NCBI GenBank assembly: GCA_030141605.1
Contig: JAQGDQ010000299.1
Span: forward strand, 223,804-287,803
Direction: 5' to 3'
DNA from: Tubiluchus corallicola
Lineage: Eukaryota > Animalia > Priapulida
DNA: 64,000 nt
The position numbers and the translations under genes are program-made. Within the stretch, counting starts at the first letter, position 1; every line of letters begins with the position of its first letter. Below the pieces are notes generated by a model. It was not told the origin of the DNA and searched no databases. It was given only the letters and a program-made list of their open reading frames with translations. This document shows, piece after piece, positions 3,693-62,364 of the stretch.

Positions 3693-3887
3693 TAGGCGTA
3701 AATACTAATCATTATAGCGAGCCCATTTCATTACGTTATCTGTAGCGTTATAACTGATACTGAACACGCTGTACTAACATTACAGTCACGGTCAGTACAG
3801 TAGGCGTAAGTACCAATCATTATAGCGAGCCTATTTCATCACGTTATAACTGATACTGGGCATGCTGTACTAACATTACAGTCACGT
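3693..3887. repeat. ~100-bp direct duplication (2 copies)
   Basis: taggcgtaa...atcattatagcgagcc...ctgtactaacattacagtcacg occurs at 3693 and 3801; the second copy has a short deletion. Confidence 0.85.
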
Positions 3888-4109
3888 GGGTAACGAGTTG
3901 AGGTTATTATTCAAGAGTTAATGAGTTCTATTTCCTCTGGAATCTTGTCAAGTTGACATTTCCTTCTGGACCAGTTTCAAACCGCATTTCGGGTCGCCAG
4001 CTCCTACAGAGAACAAGCGGAAATGTTGTTGTTGTTCGAGCATAATACAAATTTCCGTGAAAATGAACTATTATACATTAGAAAATTAAATTAAATTCTT
4101 ATAACACAC

Positions 4110-4714
4110 TTAAAGAAAGACAGGATGATTTTTCATGCACTACCCCATTTTTAAGTCCAAAAAACAGTTTACATTTTAACACAATTAACACTGCAAAAGC
4201 GCTTCTACTAATTAAAGAATAGATTAAAAACTTAATTAACGGCTGGCGAGCCCAATTACTGATGATAATTTTCAACGGCAAATATATTCCACGAGCGTGT
4301 TGCACGTGTTTGCGAAAGCAGAATTGAAGTACAGTGCTACTGTAAGATATTCAGTGTGTTGTACTAAAATTAGGCAAGTTTTAAGATAAAAATTCGAATT
4401 TCAAATTTACCGCTGTGCTCACGCACGTGTCGAGCATGTGTTCGTCACAGACTAACACATCTGAACTGAGAGGTACAGTACCTGTTTTTCGTGCAATGCG
4501 TTTCCGAAATGCAGGCGCTAGTGCCCGTCTAACTAGCGAAAGGGGAAATGCATGTAACAGCGAAGAACTAGTGACGCGAACGTAAAATTGTGTTTGTGTG
4601 GTAATAATTCTTTCACGTAAGTCATTTTTGAAAAAATAGCACGTTTCCTTTCAATGTTTTAAAGAGTAGATTGTTTTGACCTACAGTTTAAGACTGGGTT
4701 CGGTTTTGCTTTAA
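4110..4714 (+). mobile_element. TTAA-flanked non-autonomous DNA transposon, Kolobok-like family A, copy 1
   Basis: Termini TTAA-agaaagacagg and cggttttgct-TTAA. The body (ggcgagcccaa, cacgagcgtgttgcacgtgtttgcgaaagc, gcgctagtgcccgtctaactagcgaa) is shared with 18341-18941 and 61262-61878. Confidence 0.85.
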
Positions 4715-17305: not shown

Positions 17306-18340
17306 ACATCTTAATTTCAAAATAATTATCGATTATTTATAGAATGAACCCATAATCATTAAACATTTGAAACCAAACTTGACTGAAAGAAAAAGTTAAA
17401 AAGTCGATGCAGATCTCGGAGTTGAACCACGGACCTTTGTCTCATGCGCGTGTGTGATTGTTCAATGCAGTGTTAAGAAAGTGTGGCACTGCGAATTGTT
17501 ATTAATGTCGTTTTTCCCAAATCGACAAAGATGAAAAATAGAAGACCAAGTGCTGTCTCAAGCAGAAGTTTTTGTAAAGATGCGTTTTGAGTTGTGCTAA
17601 TAAAACCATCAAATTATACGCAAAGAGTTTTAAGATGTGCTGTTAGACGTTAGCTTTTAAAGTTCACTGCAGGCGCAAATTATGAAACACTTAAAAAGTT
17701 AATAATCATAGTTGAAATACTAGGCATAATAATTATAAAGCTAGATTACAATTTTTGTACAATTTTAATGGTTTTTCCAGGTCTAGTGCACGTGGTCGTT
17801 AAGTTTTCAGAAGTTGTTTTTCGTTAATGTTAATAAAAATTCCCAATAGCATCTTTAAATCACCATAAATTAATTGTGACTTTTTTCCAGTAACTTTTTT
17901 CGTGGCCAAAATTGTAACTTTTTTCTTGCGACGTTTTTTCTGATGGCTTCATTGTCGGCCATCTATATAGAATGTCGTCCACGATTAAAACCGCTACATT
18001 ATATAGGTCAAAATAAACAATTGCAACTGTTTAAGTTCAATTACGGTTTAATTTAAAGTTGAACATATAAACAGGAAATAATCAGCTCAAAGATATAATT
18101 TAAATAACCAGCGTTTAACTTCCTCATTAACATATTTTATTATAATCATTGTGTAATTATCCACTAGGCGTAAATCGTTTCCGGTCTGTTGAATTAAAAT
18201 TGAAAATAACATTCAACGAAGATAACAACAGGCTGTAATGACTAGCTTCGAATTGAAATTGCGTTTTGTAAAACATACAATTGTTACATTATAATTAGGT
18301 CCCGTAAGATCATGTCAGGATAAATTAAAATCTGTTAAGA

Positions 18341-18941
18341 TTAAAGGAAAACAGGATAATCTCTATATTCTACCCCATTTACAGGAAAAGGGTTATATTT
18401 TAGCACCTATGATAATGACAAGGCGTTCCTGATAAGGAAATAATAGGCGAAAAACTTAATTAACGGCAGGCGAGCCCAACTAGTGATGACATCACAAACG
18501 AACATAATTTTCAACAGCACAAACATTCCACGAGCGTGTTGCACGTGTTTGCGAAAGCGAAAATTGAAATACAGTGCTACTGTACAAGATTCAGTATGAT
18601 ATACATTAACTCGACAAATTTTAAATTTTACGGCTCTGCTCACGCATGAGCTCTCGAACATGTGTACTACGTCACAACTGAACACATCTGAATTGACAGG
18701 TACAACGCCTGTTTTTTGTGCAACGTGTTTCTGAGATGCAAGCGCTAGTGCCCGTCTAACTAGCGAATGACGAAATATAAACAACAGCAAAGTCCTAGCC
18801 GCGCGAACGTGAAATTACGTTTCTGCAGTAATAATTGCTTTGCGAAAATCATTGTTGAAAAAATTGCATGTTTCCTTTCAATATCTTACAGGACAGATTG
18901 TTTCGAGCTATAGGTTAAGACTGGCTCCGGTTTTCCTTTAA
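18341..18941 (+). mobile_element. Kolobok-like family A, copy 2
   Basis: Termini TTAA-aggaaaacagg and ccggttttcct-TTAA; body homologous to 4110-4714. Confidence 0.88.
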
Positions 18942-21124: not shown

Positions 21125-22032
21125 TTTCGCAGATAGTGAAAATGCGCCATTGTCTCACTATTGTTAGTAACACGGCAGGTCAAAGTACAAGAAACAGTTT
21201 ATCCACCGATCGCACATCCATTTACTAAACAGGCTCCACATTGCCTAACTTCGGTAGAAAAGCGTACACCGTGACAACTCAGCTGTTCTCATCTCTAAAT
21301 GTGCCAGATTTGCACTGTAAAATCTATCCGAGCCGAAATTGGGTTGGTGGAGCAATTACAGTAAATAAAAACAATGTCTAGCGCAAGGTACTAGGAAACA
21401 GAAAAATTTTTAGTCCTTGTAAACAGGAATAAGTACAAAAAATAATAGTAATAAAAAACTGACTGATAACAAGTAAAGTAAAATCTCCAATTTCAAAACG
21501 TTACGAAAAGGAGTAGAAACGACTCGGCCCTCAGACTTGTAAATTTTCACGTATTTAACGTTCAGGGGAAACTGACTAGGTTCAGTAAGTACTGTGTAAA
21601 GTTTCAAACTCGGTCTAGCTGTAAATTTGTAAACTGATGGCCTCAGGGTATCAACTCGCGTTCCGATCAGCTTGCTGGAGCCTGAACAGACAACTTGTAA
21701 CCGCAGATTCTGAAAAATAATAGACTCAACACCATCTCTTCATCTATCACCGTTTCTCTTGTCAAAATAGTGGACAGGTTGAATTCCGACGAAAAAGAAA
21801 CCTGCCCTCAAGATAGGAGATGTCGAGGACGTATTAAACATCCCTCTGCTAGTGACTTAACTGTTGTAGAAAAGGTTTACTTACACATTTCTTGAAAAGT
21901 TTCTTCTTTAAAATGACTACAAAAATATGGATGTCACATTAGGTTGTTGGAAGTTCTTGAAGCTTTGCAGACGAGCTGAAACTTGGCGTCTGGATACACT
22001 TTGAGTTTAAATTTATTTCACACCAAATAAAC

Positions 22033-22635
22033 AACATACATTAAAATATATACATATACATACAAGCATATACATCATATGAAAAAACATACATTAAAAT
22101 ATATACATATACATACAAGCATATACATCATATGAAAACATACAATATACATTAAAATATATACATATACATACAAGCATATACATCATATGAAAACATA
22201 CAATATACATTAAAATATATACATATACATACAAAGATATACATCATATGAAAACATACAATCTCACCTTTCTCACCATCCTCCTGGTAGATTTTCATCT
22301 GTCAGCCGGCGAACACTTGATACAGTTGTGTTCGCCATGAGTTACTTGAGCAAAAAGTACTTCAGTGACTTGCTAGGTCTATCCTGAAGGATTTGGTCCA
22401 CAGCTCCTTATTTGAATATTCGGAGCACCCTGGCTCGTGAGCCAGGGGTCCCCCATCCGCCACCCGGGAGATGCGCCCGGTAGGGTTTACTCCCCCTCGT
22501 GAAAAACATACAATATACATTAAAATATATACATATACATAGAAACATATACATCATATGAAAACATACAATATACATTAAAATATATACATATACATCA
22601 TATGAAAACATACAATACACATTAAAATATGTACA
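22033..22635. repeat. 58-bp AT-rich minisatellite interrupted by a retroposon
   Basis: Unit aaaacatacaatatacattaaaatatatacatatacatacaagcatatacatcatatg starts at 22135, 22193 and 22251, and resumes at 22503. Confidence 0.93.
22263..22502 (-). mobile_element. 240-bp structured non-autonomous retroposon, probably derived from an RTE 5'UTR and 3' end
   Basis: GC-rich insert with 12-bp TSD aaaacatacaat (22251-22262, 22503-22514), several strong hairpins, a short repeated 3' tail (ggtgagaaaggtgag) and no TIRs. Confidence 0.7.
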
Positions 22636-23837
22636 CGCATAACAAGTAGCATAATAATGAAGGGGGGGGGGGGAGACACACAGAACAAACACTTTGTTCC
22701 TGTTAAATACTGAACAATTGAACAAACTTACATAATTTAATTTTCGTAACTAGCCCGTACAATTATTCCGTTTTAATGTGATTTTCAGAAGCAGGAAAGA
22801 ACTATATTCGTTGAACAGGGCTCGTCGTCCTAATGTAAATCCTTTGTCCCCAATTTAGGATCTTAAGCACCTTAAAAACGATGCCCCTGCGCTTTGTGGT
22901 GTAATATTTTCCAACCTAGGTCTTACAGTTGTTAAATTTTGCAGTTTGGCGACGCAAATCAGTTCCAGGCAGTAAGATAAAGTTGTATATGTATAAGAAA
23001 TCACTTACATGGTTTTGATCTTTATGTATGCAATTTGAAATTTAGGTTGTGGAACTAATTTCGCAAACGCAGCCAAGTCTTCCGTGCATCTTGATGTTGT
23101 TTTCAGTGGGTAGAGTCTTAGAGAATCAAAGTATGCTAGACACAGACAACATAAGAGATTGGATAAGAGATTATGAACACAACTTAGACGTTTGTTTACA
23201 GAAATGTTGGCCACAAAATACTTTAAGAAGAAATTTGACATTAATACTTAGACGGCTTAAGTACACTTGTGCACCTGGAAGATGTAGAGTTTGTACGTGT
23301 GGAACGTTTCTTAGCAAACAACAGGTAAGCGATACGGACTTGATGCACCTGCTAGTGGAACGACAACCGAAAAACCGACAACATTTCACCACCAAAACAT
23401 GTTGACAAATGGCAGCCTTAAGAAACAAGCTTTTCTTCGTTGTCAAGGTCAAGTAGGCGTTTACAAGTGCAGAATTGTTCAATTGACACCTTATCATGTG
23501 CATATTAAGCTTGGGAAACAGTACGACTTTTATTTCTCTATTGTTGCTTGACGTTAAAGTCGCTTGTCAAGAAAAAAACTGCGTCCTAGAAACGTGATAC
23601 TTGATGTTTGCTGAAGAACGTTCGCAAGTTTCAGTGTGTTTTGTGTAATTGCTTTCACGAATTATTCTAGAGCAATAAAACGACTGAAATAGTTCCACTA
23701 AACTTTTTCCTTTGCTAACATATAATTTATATAGTACATGTAGCTAGTACTAATAATTATTTAGCTATAGATTTTGTACATTAATTTCATTTTAAACTAT
23801 TGTATGCAATAAGAAAGCATTATGATCTTACTGATAA

Positions 23838-34974: not shown

Positions 34975-35807
34975 AGCTAAAAGCTTTTGATCTAGTCAAT
35001 CATATTGTATTACATGAAAAACTTTCGAGTATATGCCTGCGACGAATTAACATTAAACTTATTTGAGTTGTAAATGTTCGGACGTCGCCAATGTGTAAAA
35101 TTTAAAGCAAGTCTTTCCGACACTACCGTAATTGACATCGGCGTGCCACAAGGTTCCATATTAGGACCTCCGTTGTTTCTTTTATATGTCAATGATATGC
35201 ATTTGCAGGTGAACCATTCAATTTGTAATATGTTTGCTGATGACTCAGTGTTCTCGTCTTCTAGTAAAAGTGGTAGTCAGTTAGTGGGAAGACCTGTGTT
35301 CTCAAGTTCTAGTAAAAGTGGTACCCAGTTAGAGGGAGACTTGTATAAACATGCCTTCCAGATTTATGGAGCAAAACTATTCATTCGGCTTCCTCAAATT
35401 GTTCAAGAAACTCCAACTGTCGTGAGTTTTAAAAGGGTCATTTTAAATAATATATTGACGAATTTTACAAATTAATTTCACGCTTATTTTATTACAGGAT
35501 GTATTTGTTTTAACCTTATGGGCTTACAGTGATATCGTAACTTGCATGCTCAGAGATTTAGTTTTAATTTGTTTCTTATACATTATTTTTCATCTTATCA
35601 ATTGGTATTAATTTTATCAGCAGAATTTAAGCCTCAAAATATTTAATTTGCTGCCTAATTTTGCACGTACGTGTAAAATTTGTATATTTTTAAGTTCTAT
35701 ATCATATTTTGCACTTTTTATCTCTATTTATATTATGTATTGTTTTAGTACACTCGACCTGGATGTAAAGGAGCCTATGGCTCATTCTAGCTGTGGAGTT
35801 TAAAGAT
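34975..35807 (+). mobile_element. Non-LTR retrotransposon remnant (CR1/L2/Crack group), 5'-truncated and internally deleted RT plus 3'UTR
   Basis: Motifs KAFDLVNH, RRQCV, GVPQGSILGPPLFLLYVND and MFADD, then a jump to the C-terminal AFQIYGAKLF..LP..SFKR. The 3'UTR ends in the (CTTA)n tail. Confidence 0.9.
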
Positions 35808-41582: not shown

Positions 41583-43343
41583 ACTTCTTACATTTCACCA
41601 CCAGAGGTAACAGAAACAAGCTGACAGCTTCTCATTCATCCAAACAAAGGCTCTGGAGACATGTTTCCTTTCCCGTCGGTCATAATCCCATTTGAACCAA
41701 ACATGTCGGTTATCTAATATCTTAACCGAATTTCCGACTCTGTCGTTTGTAGCTTATTTTCGTAATTGATGATGAGCTTAAATTGAATGTACGAATTACT
41801 ACAATTCATAGTAAAATAAGATGTGAAAGATTTCAGCCATCCAATGCTTAATAATTAATAATTAACGTAAGGTATGCATTGTCACTTGTAGATGGCAGCA
41901 CTTGTAGCATTGTTGTAGGATGGCGACAGCTAATAATTGAATATGTGTGTGTGAAACAGAACGGACAAGAAGATTTAGATTCGTCTCGATGTTATTCTAA
42001 ATTTCATTTTGAAATAAACATTATAATTAATAATAATTTTATTGCCTAAAATCCATATAGAAAAGATCTTTGACGTTCAAACATTTAAAACTTACAAGAA
42101 ATCTACGAACCATAAGAAAAAATTAAAAAACTTCTAAAAATATATTAATTTCACGTTTAAATCTACGAACCATATTTATCATTTCATCTTTAGTGTTCAG
42201 ATGCTGCATAAACCTTGCAAAAAATCATACTCTTTTAGACGTGCTGAGTAAAATGAAAAGTGACAGTCAAATTACCCCATTTTTATCCTTGTTATGATAC
42301 CAGCCGCCACCCCCTGTATATCTCAAATTTTACTCTTAATTTCCGTAATTACATATTGACGTTTACGAATAATAACAAAGATACCCAAAAACAAAGTTAC
42401 CAGAAGAGTTTTTAAGGGGCTTGCGCAGTTTCTGCAACTTCGTGTACTGAGTAGCAGAGATACAGAATTTTCTGGCTACAGTTAACAGACGTTTACTGAG
42501 GTTTTGTAACCCATATTTTAGAACCTTCATTGAATGTGGAATTCCACCGCTCTTCTATGTGAAGCTATAATTTCCTCTCAGTTATCAGTCTGAGCTTTCA
42601 CAAACGTACACACTATCCCAGGTCACCCACCAAAATCATATGATACTAATACTTTAGTATAACCAAGAACTAATCTTGTTTCAGCTAGAGGTAGAATTTT
42701 TCCAGTGCTGTCCCTCGTTTACGAAATGTGCTTTCAAATGAGGTCAAAATCTCTCAAAGTATTGCTGTTTTTAAACGTGAAATTAAAATATTTTTAAAAG
42801 TTTTTTAATCTTTTCTTATGGTTCGTAGATTTCTTGTGAGTTTTAAATGTTTGAACGTCAAAGATCTTTTCTATATGGATTTTAGGCGATAAAATTATTA
42901 TTAATTATAATGTTTATTTCAAAATGAAATTTAGAATAACATCGAGACGAATCTAAACCTTCTTGTCCAATCTGCTTCACACAAACACATTCAACTATTA
43001 GCTGTCGCCATCCTACAACAATGCTACAAGTGCTGCCATCTACAAGCGACAATGCATACCTTACGTTAATTATTAATGATTAAGCATTGGATGGCTGAAG
43101 TCTTTCACGTCTTATTTTACTGTGAATTGTAAGAAATTCAAGGCCATCATCAATTACGAAAATAAGGTACAAACGACAGAGTCGGAAATTCGGTTAAGAT
43201 ATTAGATAACAGACATGTTTAGTTGAAATGGGATTATGATCGACGGGAAAGGAAACATGCCTCCAGAGCCTTTGTTTGGATGAATGAGGAGCTGTTAGCT
43301 TGTTTCTGTTACCGCTGGTGGTCGGTAGGAAATGTCAGAAATC
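41583..43343. mobile_element. Large inverted repeat or foldback element: ~575-bp arms and a ~610-bp spacer
   Basis: 41583-42161 is the reverse complement of 42770-43343 with scattered substitutions and small indels, e.g. tcattcatccaaacaaaggctctgga and atccatatagaaaagatctttgacgttcaaacatttaaaact are mirrored. Confidence 0.9.
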
Positions 43344-48999: not shown

Positions 49000-49137
49000 G
49001 TTGAGCGCTCTGACTGCACACAGCAGCGGTATTGGTTTTTGTGGCCGCACGCAGCACTGATCTTTCTGTTTGCTCTCCTACATTATCCTCATCTATTCGA
49101 GTGCTAAGTGGCGTTAAAGAGTGTGGAAGGGGAAGGC

Positions 49138-51823
49138 ATGAGTTCCCAGGATTTTACCACGCAGTCTGGCGACGAGGACCGGAAACAGATTGGTGGGTAC
49201 AGCTGTCAGGCATTTGGAACTAAGAAGATCTTTAAGAAACTTCATCCGACGCTGAACACCATCACAGAGAAGGAAGAGAAGTCGATGGCATTTGTGAGCA
49301 ACAATAAGAAACGGAAACGGGCCAAGCTGTGCCTGGATTTCTTGCTCAACGGGTCATCAAACAGGCACTGGAGTCCTATTGGGTACACCATCACCGATAG
49401 TGAGCTACCTGCAGAAGCAGAAGAACCTTTAATCAACAACGCTCCACATGGAGACAGCAGTGGAGACGAGTGGAGTATTCACACACCGGATTCAGCTGAA
49501 GCGTTTCTGGACCTAATGGATCGCAAGAGTCCTGATTCACCTGGACCAGGACCCTTGCTAAACTTTTCTGTGGAAAGCTTGCACAATATTTCGCCAGAGT
49601 CGCTACTGCATGTCAGCGACAGAGAATTTTCGACACCAGAATCGGTTGAATCCATCATGGACGACACGCCCAGGTCGAGTAGAAACAGCAGCTTGAAGAG
49701 AAACTTTGAGCTAAATGGCAACGTGCCAGACGACACAAAGGAACACTCCCGAGAATTTGACCCGAACAATCCTATGGATTCACGTATTTACGATAAGATA
49801 TGGGAGACAGAGAACCAACAAACGTCGTGGAAGCAAAATGACTTGTGCAATGGATGGAGCGACTTTCCGGCGAGACCGCAATCTCCTATTGAAATTAATC
49901 GTAATGAAGAATCAAGTTCTCCTACTTGCCTTAATGGAGATGTAAGTAATCGATATTGTAGTGACCGAGAACCAGACGAAATAGACAGTCTTATAATGCG
50001 CACAAAAGCTGAAAACAACAAACAACAACTTTCACCCCTAAAAGGACGCAAACCATACAAGGAACTATCACGTCCACTTAAAAGCACAGATGTCACAGAG
50101 TACAAAAACTCTTTAAACAGATCACGGAGGCCCACCAGGAATGTTGACAACCAAAACACTGGTGACAGATCAAGAAACAGAAGTGGTGCATCCATCACTA
50201 GTTTACCACAGGAAGTGAAGAACAGCCACAAAGAGGCAGACATGAAGATCAATGGCAACCGCAGGAAGCCGCCCACACCTCCTTTGAAGCCACCCAGAAT
50301 GTACTACAGTCACCTGCTTGAAAATCCCAATATGGTTAATAACAACAAGAATGCTGGGGAAAAAGAACTGGATAAGCGTCCGAATAGACCTGCTTCATCA
50401 GCATCAGTTACGCCTGATGAAGGCAAGCGTGGCATGAAACCAGCCGGTCGACAGCAACGTTGTCGCAGTTTAAGCCCCACAAGAAATGGCACCTCTCTCA
50501 GTCTTCCTCCTGAACGTGTTCGATATTCAGATCAGCTTGAAACTTGCACCCGATCCAGCCGATCACAGCATGATAAAAATCTGAACTGGTTCTTGCAAGA
50601 GTCGAAAGAGCAACGACAGAATTCCTCGCAACGGGAAAGAACGCAGAAGAATCTGTACGAGAATTGTCGGATGACACGATCGACACAGTCTTTACAGCGT
50701 GATCAGAGATTTGGTTTAAACAAACAAGACATGGACGAGCAAGTCGAGGTGGCTTCCCTTTCTGGTTCTGTGAAGGAACGAATCGATAATTTCGAAAGAA
50801 TGTCGCAGACGTCATCAAACAGTGAAAATGGTCATAGATTTAAATATCTCAGCGATTCCGAGTACAGCTATAAGAAGTGCAAGCGCCGCCCTGGTGAGAA
50901 GAAGTCTCTTGGCTACTGCAATAGCTCCGGATCAGCATCTTGTGATGAGTACAATCTTGATGATGACTTTGCTCCCCGTTGGGCCAACTATTGCTTACTG
51001 AAGAACATCCGTAATTCAGAAACCGGTAGCGATGATACTTCTGTGTTAAACAGAGTAGTCAAATATCCCACATTTAGTGACTTGACCAGTGCAGATCTGG
51101 AACTGCAACCATCTGATTTTGATTACGAGCTGGACAGTCAGGGTCCAGTGTACGAAGAGAAGTCCAGCTGGAGGACCCAGAGCGACACCGAAAGCGGCAG
51201 ATCTGGAAACAAACATCGCGTGCGATTTGCTTGCGACGATGATGTTAAACATAAGCAAAACAACGAAGCACAAAAACACCAGAGCAAAGAACTGACTACG
51301 TACGGTAGTGATACGTCTGAGAGAAAGTGTCCTACGCCAGTACTTGAGGGAAATAATTGCACAAGTTTTCAATGGGAAGTTGGTTTACAGACATCTAAAA
51401 AATTCTTGGATGCCAATAATAGCATGACTACGTATATTAGTGATACGTCTGAGAGAAACTGTACTACGCCAGTACTTGAGGGAAATAATTGCACAAGTTT
51501 TCAACAGGAAGTTGGTTTACAGACATCTAAAAAGTTCTTGGATGCCAATAATAGCATGACTACGTATATTAGTGATACGTCTGAGAGAAACTGTACTACG
51601 CCAATACTTGAGGGAAATAATTGCACAAGTTTTCAACAGGAAGTTGGTTTGCAGAGATCTAAAAAATTCTTGGATGCCAATGATAGCACGGTGTCGCGAC
51701 GCAGTGACAACGGCGGGCTAGAGGAACCTAAGATTACGATTGGCCTGATGAGATCCCATCTAGAAGATCTTATTGAATGTGCCGTCAACATTCAATTGTC
51801 TCTCAGCGACGCAGAGGACGAAG
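49138..51823 (+). CDS. Large first coding exon (~895 aa) of an unidentified, largely disordered signalling or scaffold-type protein; 3'-incomplete
   Basis: 2.7-kb non-repetitive ORF with higher GC than its surroundings. An in-frame TAA at 49105-49107 precedes ggcATG at 49138. Consensus donor GAAG|gtgagt at 51823/51824 (phase 1), after which composition becomes intron-like, so the ORF-track end at 51885 is read-through. Confidence 0.88.
51293..51690 (+). repeat. Coding 132-bp (44-aa) tandem repeat x3
   Basis: tgactacgta... starts at 51293, 51425 and 51557; unit TTY(G/I)SDTSER(K/N)C(P/T)TP(V/I)LEGNNCTSFQ(W/Q)EVGLQ(T/R)SKKFLDAN(N/D)S. Confidence 0.97.
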
Positions 51824-53483
51824 GTGAGTTTGTTTTAGCTTCTAGAGAAATTAGAGTAGTACTATGTTTGCATTTCAGTAGCTAATATAATGGCTACAGC
51901 GTGAGGTCAGCCTCTTGTCTGGAATTAAGTCTGCACACAAACTTTTCAAGTTCAATTACATAATGCATCAAAAAGGTTTAAGGTCTCGTGACAAAGATTG
52001 CATAGATCAGCTAATCCTTAAATACCAGGCAGCATGGAGCTCTGCACATAGGAAATGCACCATGCTTCCAATGTAAACGCTTCTGCTATATTGTCTGCAT
52101 TAGAAAAGCGCTCCATTGCCTCAAGCAGTTCTTTCTCCATTAAGCTTGTTATGGTTTTCACTTGGAAACTGGGTTTACATATTGTAATAATTGATAGCTT
52201 CGTCCTCGGGTACAGCATAAAATGATTAATCAATGGTCCTACCTGCTGACCTCTTAGACCTTAATGTCAATTTTTCTACTGACGACTGAAGACCAATTGC
52301 AGGGGACTTACTTTCACATAAAAGCAGATTTTCGCCTTGAGATGTAAAAAGATCAAACGTTTATCTGTAGTAGATTACACGAGAAATCAAGCTGTGTTTG
52401 TAATTAGCAACTTTTAACAGAAATTGAAACGGCGCCATTTTTGAGACCGTTTAACTTTTGTGTTAATCCGCGCAGCAAATAGTTTTTTTGTAGTGGAATA
52501 TCACTTTTGACAAAGTTTTGCAAAGTTTTCACTTATTTATTTTATTATTTATTGTTTGTTGTCTGTAAACTCGTCAGGTCTCTCAATTTATGATTATTTA
52601 AAAAAAACACTGAGGTTGTTCGTTTTTAAATCTTACAGTAGATCGTGCTATGACTCCATTTCAGTACAAAAAACTTTTTTGCATGCTGCATGCATGCTTC
52701 CCTGCTACAGCCATCACAAACTCATGTTACTGGCTTTTCTTAAATTTAAATTTAATTGGTTTCGTGCCCGAGGTTTGTAGTGCAAATTTAATTTGTTCGG
52801 CTGAAACAAGTCAATCAACCTGTACTTTCTAGCGTATATGTGCTAAACAATATTTGATAGAATTTAGCTCTAGGCGTTCGGAGGGCCAATGCACTATACT
52901 CGATTCGTTTATGGCATTCTTAATCAGCCTTAAATATCATGTCATTTTTGTTATGTATTAACATTCGTGAGAAAACTCTTACTTGTTGTCTGTGACACGA
53001 TGGAATGTTTTGTAGTAGAAAACGAAGACTCCTGTATCACTCAAAGTTTCACTTTTAATTTAAATTTTAATACCACATATAAAATACGTCATACGGCGCT
53101 GAAAGTTTTTATAGAGAAATTCTGTACAAACATTATAATGCTTCTTCCTTCTACATTTGTTGATTATTTAACTCCCTTTCAACAAATCCATTACTATTTT
53201 ACTCGTAGACTTATTGGTAACGTTGATCCTCCTGGCATACATACTAGTTGCTGCTACCGAAATTCTTCATATGCTGCTATCCCAACAATGGACTCAACTT
53301 ACTCCTTGGGCAAAAGATTTGGAATTGCAACAGTTTAAAAAGGACATATTTGATTTGTGACTAACTCGTTACCTAACCTGCTTAGTTGGCGTTTTTAAAT
53401 GTTTCTAACTTCAATTGTTTGTCTTGCTACCATTAACTGTCTTTATAACTGTCTGAATATTGCCTTGACTGTGCCAAAAATAT

Positions 53484-61261: not shown

Positions 61262-61878
61262 TTAAAGCAATACGGGACCCAATACTAAAATATAGATCAA
61301 AACCATCTACTCTTTAAAATATTGAAAGAAACATACTACTTTTTTTACCTAATGACTTACATGAAAGAATTATTAGCACACAAACACAATTTTTACGTTC
61401 GCACTACTAGTTCTTTGCTGTTATGTATATTTGGGCATTCGCTAGTTAGACTGGCACTGGCACCTGCATTTCGGAAACACATTGCACAAAAAACAAAGCG
61501 CTGTACCTCTCAGTTCAGGTATGCTAGTTTGTGACGAACTACACAAGTTCGATAGCTCATGATGAGCACGGTAAATTTGAAATTTGAATTTTTATCTTAA
61601 AGCTTGTCTAGTTTTAGTACAACACACAATATTTTACAGTAGCACTGTACTTTAATTTTCGCTTTTGCAAACACGCGCAACACGCTCGTGGAATATTTTT
61701 GCTGTTGAAAATTATGTTAGTTTGTGATGTCATCAATAGTTGGGCTCGCCCGCCGTTAATTACGACTATTATTTAAATATTAGAAATGCTTTTGCAGTAT
61801 TAATTGTGTTAAAATGTATACTTTTTATCGGACTTGAAAATGGGGTAGTGCATGAAACATCACCCTGTCTTCCTTTAA
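61262..61878 (-). mobile_element. Kolobok-like family A, copy 3 (inverted)
   Basis: Reverse complement of 4110-4714 with TTAA at both ends; an extra terminal fragment of the same family follows at ~61884-62016. Confidence 0.88.
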
Positions 61879-62364
61879 ACTTAGGCTCGTCTGTCGTTAA
61901 TTAAGTTTTTAATCTATTATTTTAATTACCAGAAATGCTTTCGCGTTATTATACGTGTTAATATGTATATTTTTATCGTTCTTCAAAACTGGATATGAGA
62001 AATTGTTTTCTTTTAATGTATTGTATATTGGTACACTGCACTATAAACTTGAATAGACACTGTCACTGTTTCTGCTATGCTAGCAATGTAACTCACTAAA
62101 CTCCAGTGCGACATGAATACAGGTTAATCAGCTTTCTGCCCAGGTAAAGAGGATTGACTTCAATTTTAAGTTTTTACCAGCGCTATCAAAATACGATCAC
62201 ACTGACGAGGTCAGTGTCAGCGCTACGCGTTGACTGCAGATGTGCGTACGTGAATGCGTGAACGTGTTTTGTTATTGCGGGATTTGTACGATCAGGGTCT
62301 GTTCACACAAGTCCGGTAACGGCAGGACTCGTCGAGCAAATGATCGTCTTTAAGTGCGAAGTAC

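Follow-up and report, generated by a model that had tools for sequence, protein, structure and literature searches.

An internally deleted RTE-type element in a priapulid genome with a predicted four-way RNA junction and complementary arms beside its deletion

Few LINE clades, above all RTE, are reported to yield two-part non-autonomous elements, and the cause is stated to be unexplained (PMC5786205). That account describes bipartite RTE derivatives as arising "for unknown reasons" and does not mention pairing of their ends. Its examples (Bov-A, RTE-N1/N2_Lch, WALLSI3, RTESINE1/2, and MAR4_MD) consist of a 5′ part and a 3′ part joined by internal deletion, have no small-RNA head, and carry a microsatellite-like tail and a TSD. 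R2 SIDEs are likewise non-LTR elements shortened by internal deletion, in which a structured 5′ RNA and the 3′ recognition region persist, and a template jump is discussed as one of their origins (Eickbush and Eickbush 2012, PMC3414825). Finally, HDV-like and twister ribozymes are structured RNAs that occupy the 5′ ends of LINEs.

Here, we compare these systems with a locus in the priapulid Tubiluchus corallicola, within a stretch of 64,000 nt (contig JAQGDQ010000299.1, positions 223,804 to 287,803) that we call the window. An insert at this locus resembles the bipartite RTE elements in its two joined parts, its internal deletion, its lack of a small-RNA head, its microsatellite-like tail, and its TSD. 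It is also like an R2 SIDE in the ends that it retains, but R2 SIDEs keep an HDV-like ribozyme, insert into rDNA, and are rare, and their authors favored DNA recombination; an end-to-end duplex is not mentioned for them in the accessible text (PMC3414825). With the LINE ribozymes, the insert shares the 5′-terminal position of a structured RNA, whereas its own module has a predicted four-way junction topology and matches neither Rfam nor a strict descriptor. The four-way-junction motif of its 5′ part was not found in the searchable supplement of PMC5786205, in which Fig. S4 is a picture. Kojima's conserved RTE 5′ UTR domain, shared across phyla, is unlike this motif in sequence; in one relative of the motif (L020), the GGAGAAGGAAAAC segment of that domain follows downstream of the junction, and it is missing from the window insert. 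Neither the junction nor the pairing of the element's ends, which we call the clasp, was described in the full-text literature searched, including the accessible parts of PMC13708176, PMC6765202, PMC2887409, PMC7245038, and PMC4844689, while Gogolevsky 2008, Okada and Hamada 1997, and Malik and Eickbush 1998 might mention pairing. The bipartite non-autonomous RTE is an already described class, and as an element the insert is of an ordinary kind, while its four-way 5′ module and 5′-3′ clasp appear to be undescribed so far.

The insert is 240 bp long, lies in minus sense inside a 58-bp minisatellite (Table 1), and has a GC content of 53%, vs. 37% across the window. The 12-bp TSD that flanks it is real, because the spacing of minisatellite units across the insert is 310, which equals 58 + 240 + 12. 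The preliminary description, made from the sequence alone, had claimed a GC-rich insert with such a TSD in an AT-rich minisatellite, and these values agree with it. Upstream of the TSD copy at the 5′ end, at a distance of 8-11 nt, the sense strand has a T4 run (22525-22522), so that the insert shows the TPRT signature of a TSD plus a T-run ~10 nt upstream. A T-run at this distance is the insertion signature of RTE (PMC6007223). Self-comparison found no terminal inverted match of the kind expected for a MITE or DNA transposon, as the earlier claim of absent TIRs had it, and no second copy of the insert within the 64-kb window. The absence of a tRNA or 5S head was also correctly called: no tRNA was found in the insert, and Rfam returned 0 matches at E<=10 over 21500-23300, including to twister, pistol, hatchet, and hammerhead ribozymes, leaving no tRNA, 5S, or 7SL head of a SINE. 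A tRNA-like cloverleaf or Pol III boxes were likewise unsupported, by the tRNA search and by eye.

Table 1. Coordinates of the insert and its features within the window.
Feature	Position	Strand	Basis
TSD copy at element 3′ end	22251..22262	.	repeat spacing
TSD copy at element 5′ end	22503..22514	.	repeat spacing
Whole insert, bipartite non-autonomous RTE-type element	22263..22502	-	public contigs
5′-junction 6 nt, absent from other copies	22497..22502	-	X1, X12, and X18 contigs stop matching at 22496
5′ part: RTE 5′ UTR and first ORF codons	22323..22496	-	X1, X5, X7, and X12 contigs
Predicted four-way RNA junction	22399..22475	-	RNAalifold, MFE, covariation, profile
Closing stem Pd of predicted junction	22475-22472 with 22402-22399	-	four-way junction prediction
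Arms of predicted junction	Pa 22471-22449; Pb 22447-22428; Pc 22426-22403	-	
Possible outer stem: 5′ G-run with 22391-22386; weak in window copy	22386..22496	-	alignment
Possible pseudoknot: Pa loop with 22396-22394; weak in window copy	22386..22496	-	alignment
Probable start codon (22338-22336) and predicted duplex 5′ arm (22336-22328)	22328..22338	-	sequence; contig loose ends
Deletion junction, 2 nt matching neither parent side cleanly	22321..22322	-	contigs
Last ORF codons, predicted duplex 3′ arm (22316-22308), stop codon (22297-22295)	22295..22320	-	X7 contig ends
3′ UTR, 32 nt, ending in short tandem-repeat tail with 9-nt unit	22263..22294	-	sequence, contigs

To place the insert relative to its parent, contigs were mapped onto it from 8 of the 22 positive public runs (the insert was present, whole or in part, in 22 of 24 listed). 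In all four runs of the first contig mapping, it behaved as two pieces, with loose ends at 22323 and 22320. Contigs from X1, X5, X7, and X12 match 22496-22323 and then diverge at 22323, continuing in an open frame that starts at the ATG of 22338-22336, while contigs that match 22320-22263 carry other sequence before that segment. In X7, this 3′ part forms the ends of two contigs of 3073 nt and 2982 nt. The loose ends that precede the 3′ part read, by eye, as D-R-x-x-W-R codons in frame shortly before the stop, and the C-termini of proteins P0004 and P0006 likewise end in D-R-x-x-W-R, the ending found in single-ORF EN+RT proteins related to L020. We take this ending, along with a single EN+RT ORF, to be a hallmark of RTE. 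The 5′ part thus exits into an open frame and carries a motif homologous to the L020 5′ UTR, and the 3′ part is the extreme 3′ end of ~3-kb contigs, with a short tandem tail. The insert is a bipartite, internally deleted RTE-type LINE, in which ~175 nt of 5′ UTR and ORF start are joined to the last codons and the 3′ tail; the clade of the parent is indicated indirectly, by these sequence features. The preliminary reading of a headless retroposon was right about the missing small-RNA head but overlooked this bipartite, internally deleted nature, and its statement that the insert lacks a useful ORF obscures the presence of the parent's probable start codon and its stop codon.

One X1 contig (record 7) reads through this junction with no mismatch but has a different flank, and two X2 contigs (records 9 and 10) are near-junction variants, all three falling below our 31-letter bridging rule. 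The other flank of the X1 record hints that the short joined form moves on its own. Splicing was rejected as the cause of the deletion, as the window breakpoints are without GT/AG and the junctions in the related family T (below) are scattered by eye. Separately, an X18 joint from organism F (22319-22366) is apparently an independent deletion derivative with a near-identical 3′ breakpoint and a shorter 5′ part. In organism B, an X5 contig of 1705 nt (record 17, on 22268-22485) has the element's 3′ end followed by the 5′ part 162 letters later, an arrangement that is either a tandem head-to-tail or a longer 5′ UTR.

Relatives of the 5′ motif were sought in metagenome loci with a pattern made from the loops of stems 1 and 3. 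This search returned at least 113 loci, with ~2300 estimated. Most of the matches listed belong to one abundant family, family T, which we presume to be termite-like. Three other loci among the matches listed (L020, L078, and L098) are nearer to the window motif than family T is. In L020, the motif lies upstream of an endonuclease ORF (PF03372) whose protein relatives include single EN+RT proteins of ~955 aa, and EN-like sequence lies downstream in 20 family-T hit rows among the matches listed. Motif identity between the window and its relatives is 55-68%. Because the score of the window against our R1 model is circular, homology was judged from profiles built without the window. One such profile finds the window motif at E 1.5e-8, and family T alone as a profile finds it at only E 0.015. 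Together with the position of the L020 motif upstream of an EN ORF, this upholds the earlier claim that stems 1-3 are homologous to RTE 5′ UTRs. Eight pattern matches (L001, L006, L115, and L116-L120) were set aside as chance, as R1 has no match to them. A viral scan for the motif pattern gave 0 matches, no relatives of the L020 protein were found in viral contigs, and Rfam on eight motif loci gave three weak matches far below gathering scores, none of them on the motif.

Four RTE lineages share stems 1-3, in which compensatory changes are seen. They had been presented as consecutive hairpins, and while the stems themselves are borne out, they are predicted to be the arms of a four-way junction, which had been missed. 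The junction was recovered both by RNAalifold on alignment A1 (10 rows from four lineages only) and by the single-sequence MFE of L020. Its closing stem, Pd, is 4 bp long, with a G-C pair of the other sequences replaced by A-U in the window, and is not formed in the window's own MFE. When the junction is taken with a 5-bp pseudoknot, 94.6% of 184 cells in A1 are paired, and 6 of the 19 pairs show a double change. None of 500 shuffles equaled either the paired percentage or the covariation score, in agreement with the compensatory stem changes first claimed, although the count of double-change pairs was not above chance (equaled by 96 of 500 shuffles). The pseudoknot holds at three of five pairs in the window and is indistinguishable from a nested alternative whose covariation falls at an identical position. 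Conservation of the loops, also claimed, is partly forced by the search pattern, which itself imposed the invariance of two of them. By eye, changes in X18 contigs keep the stems (Pa C-G to U-G, Pb G-C to G-U, and Pc C-G to U-G or U-A), and one X12 change shortens Pb.

Single sequences were also compared with shuffles. The 5′ module alone folds at z -1.30 (17 of 200 shuffles as good), and single copies of family T fold no better than shuffles (z +0.52 and +0.77). On the minus strand, the whole insert reaches z -2.18, a fold matched by 3 of 200 shuffles, and on the plus strand z -3.05, matched by 2 of 200; it thus folds only moderately beyond chance. With four lineages aligned, covariation supports a predicted four-way junction rather than proving it. 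Still, from these models, we judge with high confidence that the 5′-terminal junction would be a real RNA fold. An Rfam scan, proposed at the outset, gave 0 matches over the window segment and none on the motif in the eight loci, and we consider the junction a candidate RNA family that Rfam 15 does not contain.

All four of the minus-strand stems named in the preliminary description are present. However, stem 2 is impossible with the 2-nt loop that it was given and folds with a 4-nt loop instead, and stem 4 is no hairpin of the 5′ UTR, since its arms derive from opposite ends of the parent. Its 5′ arm lies at the start codon and its 3′ arm in the last codons (Table 1). Since this hairpin straddles the junction, the start codon of the parent would likely pair with the end of the ORF ~3 kb away. 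A perfect 9-bp stem across the junction, within 25 nt on either side, occurred in 19 of 20000 shuffles. The parent sequence deleted on both sides, read by eye from the contig loose ends, adds ~8 more pairs. We therefore consider it highly likely that, in the ~3-kb parent RNA, the start-codon region would pair with the sequence just after the D-R-x-x-W-R codons and close a large loop, the parent duplex and RT domain being visible only as 30-nt loose ends. The X18 joint is without the 5′ arm and is an exception to this pattern.

Similar pairing can be read by eye, without statistics, in the aligned ends of autonomous RTE elements in the supplement of PMC5786205. BovB has 10 perfect pairs, about 812-821 with 3797-3806, and its 3′ arm lies just after D-R-x-x-W-R. 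Bov-A2 has 11 pairs, a compensatory change among them. RTE-3_AMi and RTE-1_PSi have nine perfect pairs each and differ from one another by a compensatory change, while RTE1_LA, RTE-11_AMi, and RTE-4_PPo have similar stems that are shorter or interrupted (all PMC5786205).

The same relationship between breakpoints and arms was then assessed in family T, using 104 distinct motif-bearing copies among the matches listed (111 hit rows before deduplication), all of them selected for the 5′ motif. These comprise 52 bipartite copies, 8 with inverted 5′ ends, 17 running into the ORF, 8 at a locus edge, and 19 others. Two bipartite calls (L034 and L049) were removed as nested insertions, and the remaining 50 copies among the matches listed have 48 different junctions. 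In these copies, the 5′ break lies at +9 or later from the 5′ UTR arm in 50 of 50, and the 3′ break lies before the complementary arm, just after the D-R-x-x-W-R codons, in 49 of 50. The junctions comprise 21 with overlap, 5 flush, 22 with 1-12 extra nt, and 2 with more. In seven of the eight inverted copies among the matches listed, the 5′ piece stops at +12 to +57, counted from where the 5′ arm starts. Three copies are exceptions with respect to the arms: L014 is without the inner 3′ arm, L035 without the 5′ arm, and L066 without the 3′ arm. The family-T duplex itself is weak at -12.4 kcal/mol: 7.6% of 20930 segment pairs are as strong, as were 43 of 5000 shuffles of the duplex's own segments, and a partner that binds the 3′ arm more strongly exists elsewhere. 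Within-copy covariation of the arms is marginal (p 0.031 for Watson-Crick pairs and 0.060 with G-U) in 33 related copies that include ~7 mis-anchored rows.

Two further observations concern family T. Some copies have an inverted 5′ piece relative to the 3′ piece, in a twin-priming geometry (L004, with its motif at 4001-4055 minus and its 3′ end near 4323 plus, and L018, L089, L091, L097, and L062). In addition, a second conserved segment starting CCTCCAGC lies ~25-75 nt downstream of the motif (for example, at L053:820-900). The CCTCCAGC segment has loose HDV-like parses, begins like Kojima's conserved RTE domain, and may be another structured module.

The two-part anatomy of the window insert, its breakpoints, its TSD, and the complementary arms beside its junction are plainly observed. 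Our reading is that this internally deleted RTE-type copy probably arose when the reverse transcriptase jumped across a predicted RNA duplex clasping the ends of its parent. The ends of the parent RNA would pair and close it into a large loop. The RT would start at the 3′ tail and then stall, or meet a break, inside the loop. Being near the 3′ arm, it could restart just downstream of the tethered 5′ arm and leave deleted copies with short overlaps or extra bases, and the same restart combined with twin priming would produce inverted copies. The short form would subsequently be mobilized in trans by the parent's protein. Template jumps are documented for non-LTR RTs (PMC3414825). We think it reasonably likely that restart beside the tethered 5′ arm yields the deleted copies and, by twin priming, the inverted ones.

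The same duplex could instead serve as a switch from translation to copying, hiding the start codon until a ribosome reaches the end of the ORF, in which case the deletions would reflect selection for an intact duplex rather than jumping by the RT. This would fit the window's 5′ arm, whose first base is the G of the probable start codon, as well as the BovB arm, which contains an ATG too, and a 3′ arm that lies within the last codons. In family T, however, the 5′ arm is in the UTR, upstream of the EN codons. Moreover, 48 junctions in 50 copies among the matches listed, with 21 overlaps and 22 cases of 1-12 extra nt, look like repeated de novo events. We consider such a switch unlikely.

Another explanation would do away with the duplex, the two ends being kept as independent cis elements (an internal promoter or a translation element at the 5′ end and an RT recognition site at the 3′ end), with the junction stem incidental or having guided a single deletion. 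Minimal cis elements would likewise predict sharp edges to the breakpoints, the duplex energy in family T is unremarkable, copies without an arm exist, and promoter activity or regulator binding has been proposed for conserved RTE 5′ UTR sequence (PMC5786205). Yet complementary arms stand at both edges in the window's family, as they do in family T and at least six published RTEs; the arm sequences are unrelated and show compensatory changes, and the arm has the same position after D-R-x-x-W-R wherever this is readable (the window, family T, and BovB). The compensatory changes in the four-way junction also argue for an RNA structure over a DNA motif. Independent cis elements are thus an improbable account of the retained ends, and we retain the jump across a predicted clasp as our preferred reading.

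As for the four-way junction itself, we tentatively suggest that it may be a cis handle, bound by the RTE protein, that would secure the 5′ end of the RNA. The alternative is a self-cleaving ribozyme, either a new class or HDV-like with a large L3 insertion, that would free the element from read-through transcripts and set its 5′ end; a promoter or translation role is conceivable too. In favor of a ribozyme, the junction is no more than ~15 nt from a defined 5′ end (22496, where contigs stop), family T starts ~48 nt before the motif anchor, 5′ ribozymes are reported in other RTEs (PMC5786205), a compact junction with a possible pseudoknot suits such RNAs, and by eye a loose HDV threading can be drawn with Pd as P3 and GG after the outer stem. 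Nevertheless, a ribozyme is improbable here: a strict HDV descriptor, built on the nested double pseudoknot P1-P4 with the L3 and J4/2 consensus, gave 0 matches in 13 sequences, loose HDV matches also occur in 13% of 60 shuffles, Rfam ribozyme matches are absent from the window segment and the eight loci, the distance from 5′ end to fold varies by lineage (about 0, 10, and 12 nt), and the L3-like bases covary as stem Pa, with no conserved P2 seen. The claim that the module fits neither an HDV nor a twister fold accordingly stands, given the strict descriptor and 0 Rfam matches.

Beyond this locus, it is possible, if somewhat speculative, that RNAs of the RTE clade would be clasped by a clade-wide 5′-3′ duplex that steers the RT to the 5′ end, and that one branch would also have a new pseudoknotted four-way junction at its 5′ terminus, either a protein-binding module or a class of self-cleaving ribozyme. 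If the halves join where the ends of the parent likely pair, this would explain why RTE mini-elements are frequent. Conserved end pairing would be a direct, testable answer to the excess of such elements, covering Bov-A, AfroSINE-type, and many other SINE bodies. RTE-1 proteins are under development for RNA-only gene insertion, for which cognate 5′ and 3′ UTRs are required (PMC13708176). A 5′-3′ duplex, together with a defined 5′ fold, would matter both for how templates are designed in these tools and for truncation.

The window also contains several features unrelated to the insert. Two 583-bp inverted repeats with 91% identity lie ~600 bp apart at 41585-42161 and 42770-43340 and may represent a DNA transposon or foldback element. 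A dispersed repeat of ~630 bp is present in three copies with 73-81% identity (4087-4714, 18321-18941, and 61262-61883). On the plus strand, an open frame of 925 aa (49108-51885) contains three 132-bp repeats, has no Atlas match, and is probably a large exon that encodes part of a disordered protein. Another LINE is represented, also on the plus strand, by a degenerate reverse-transcriptase-like fragment at 35074-35475 with QGSILGP and FADD motifs.
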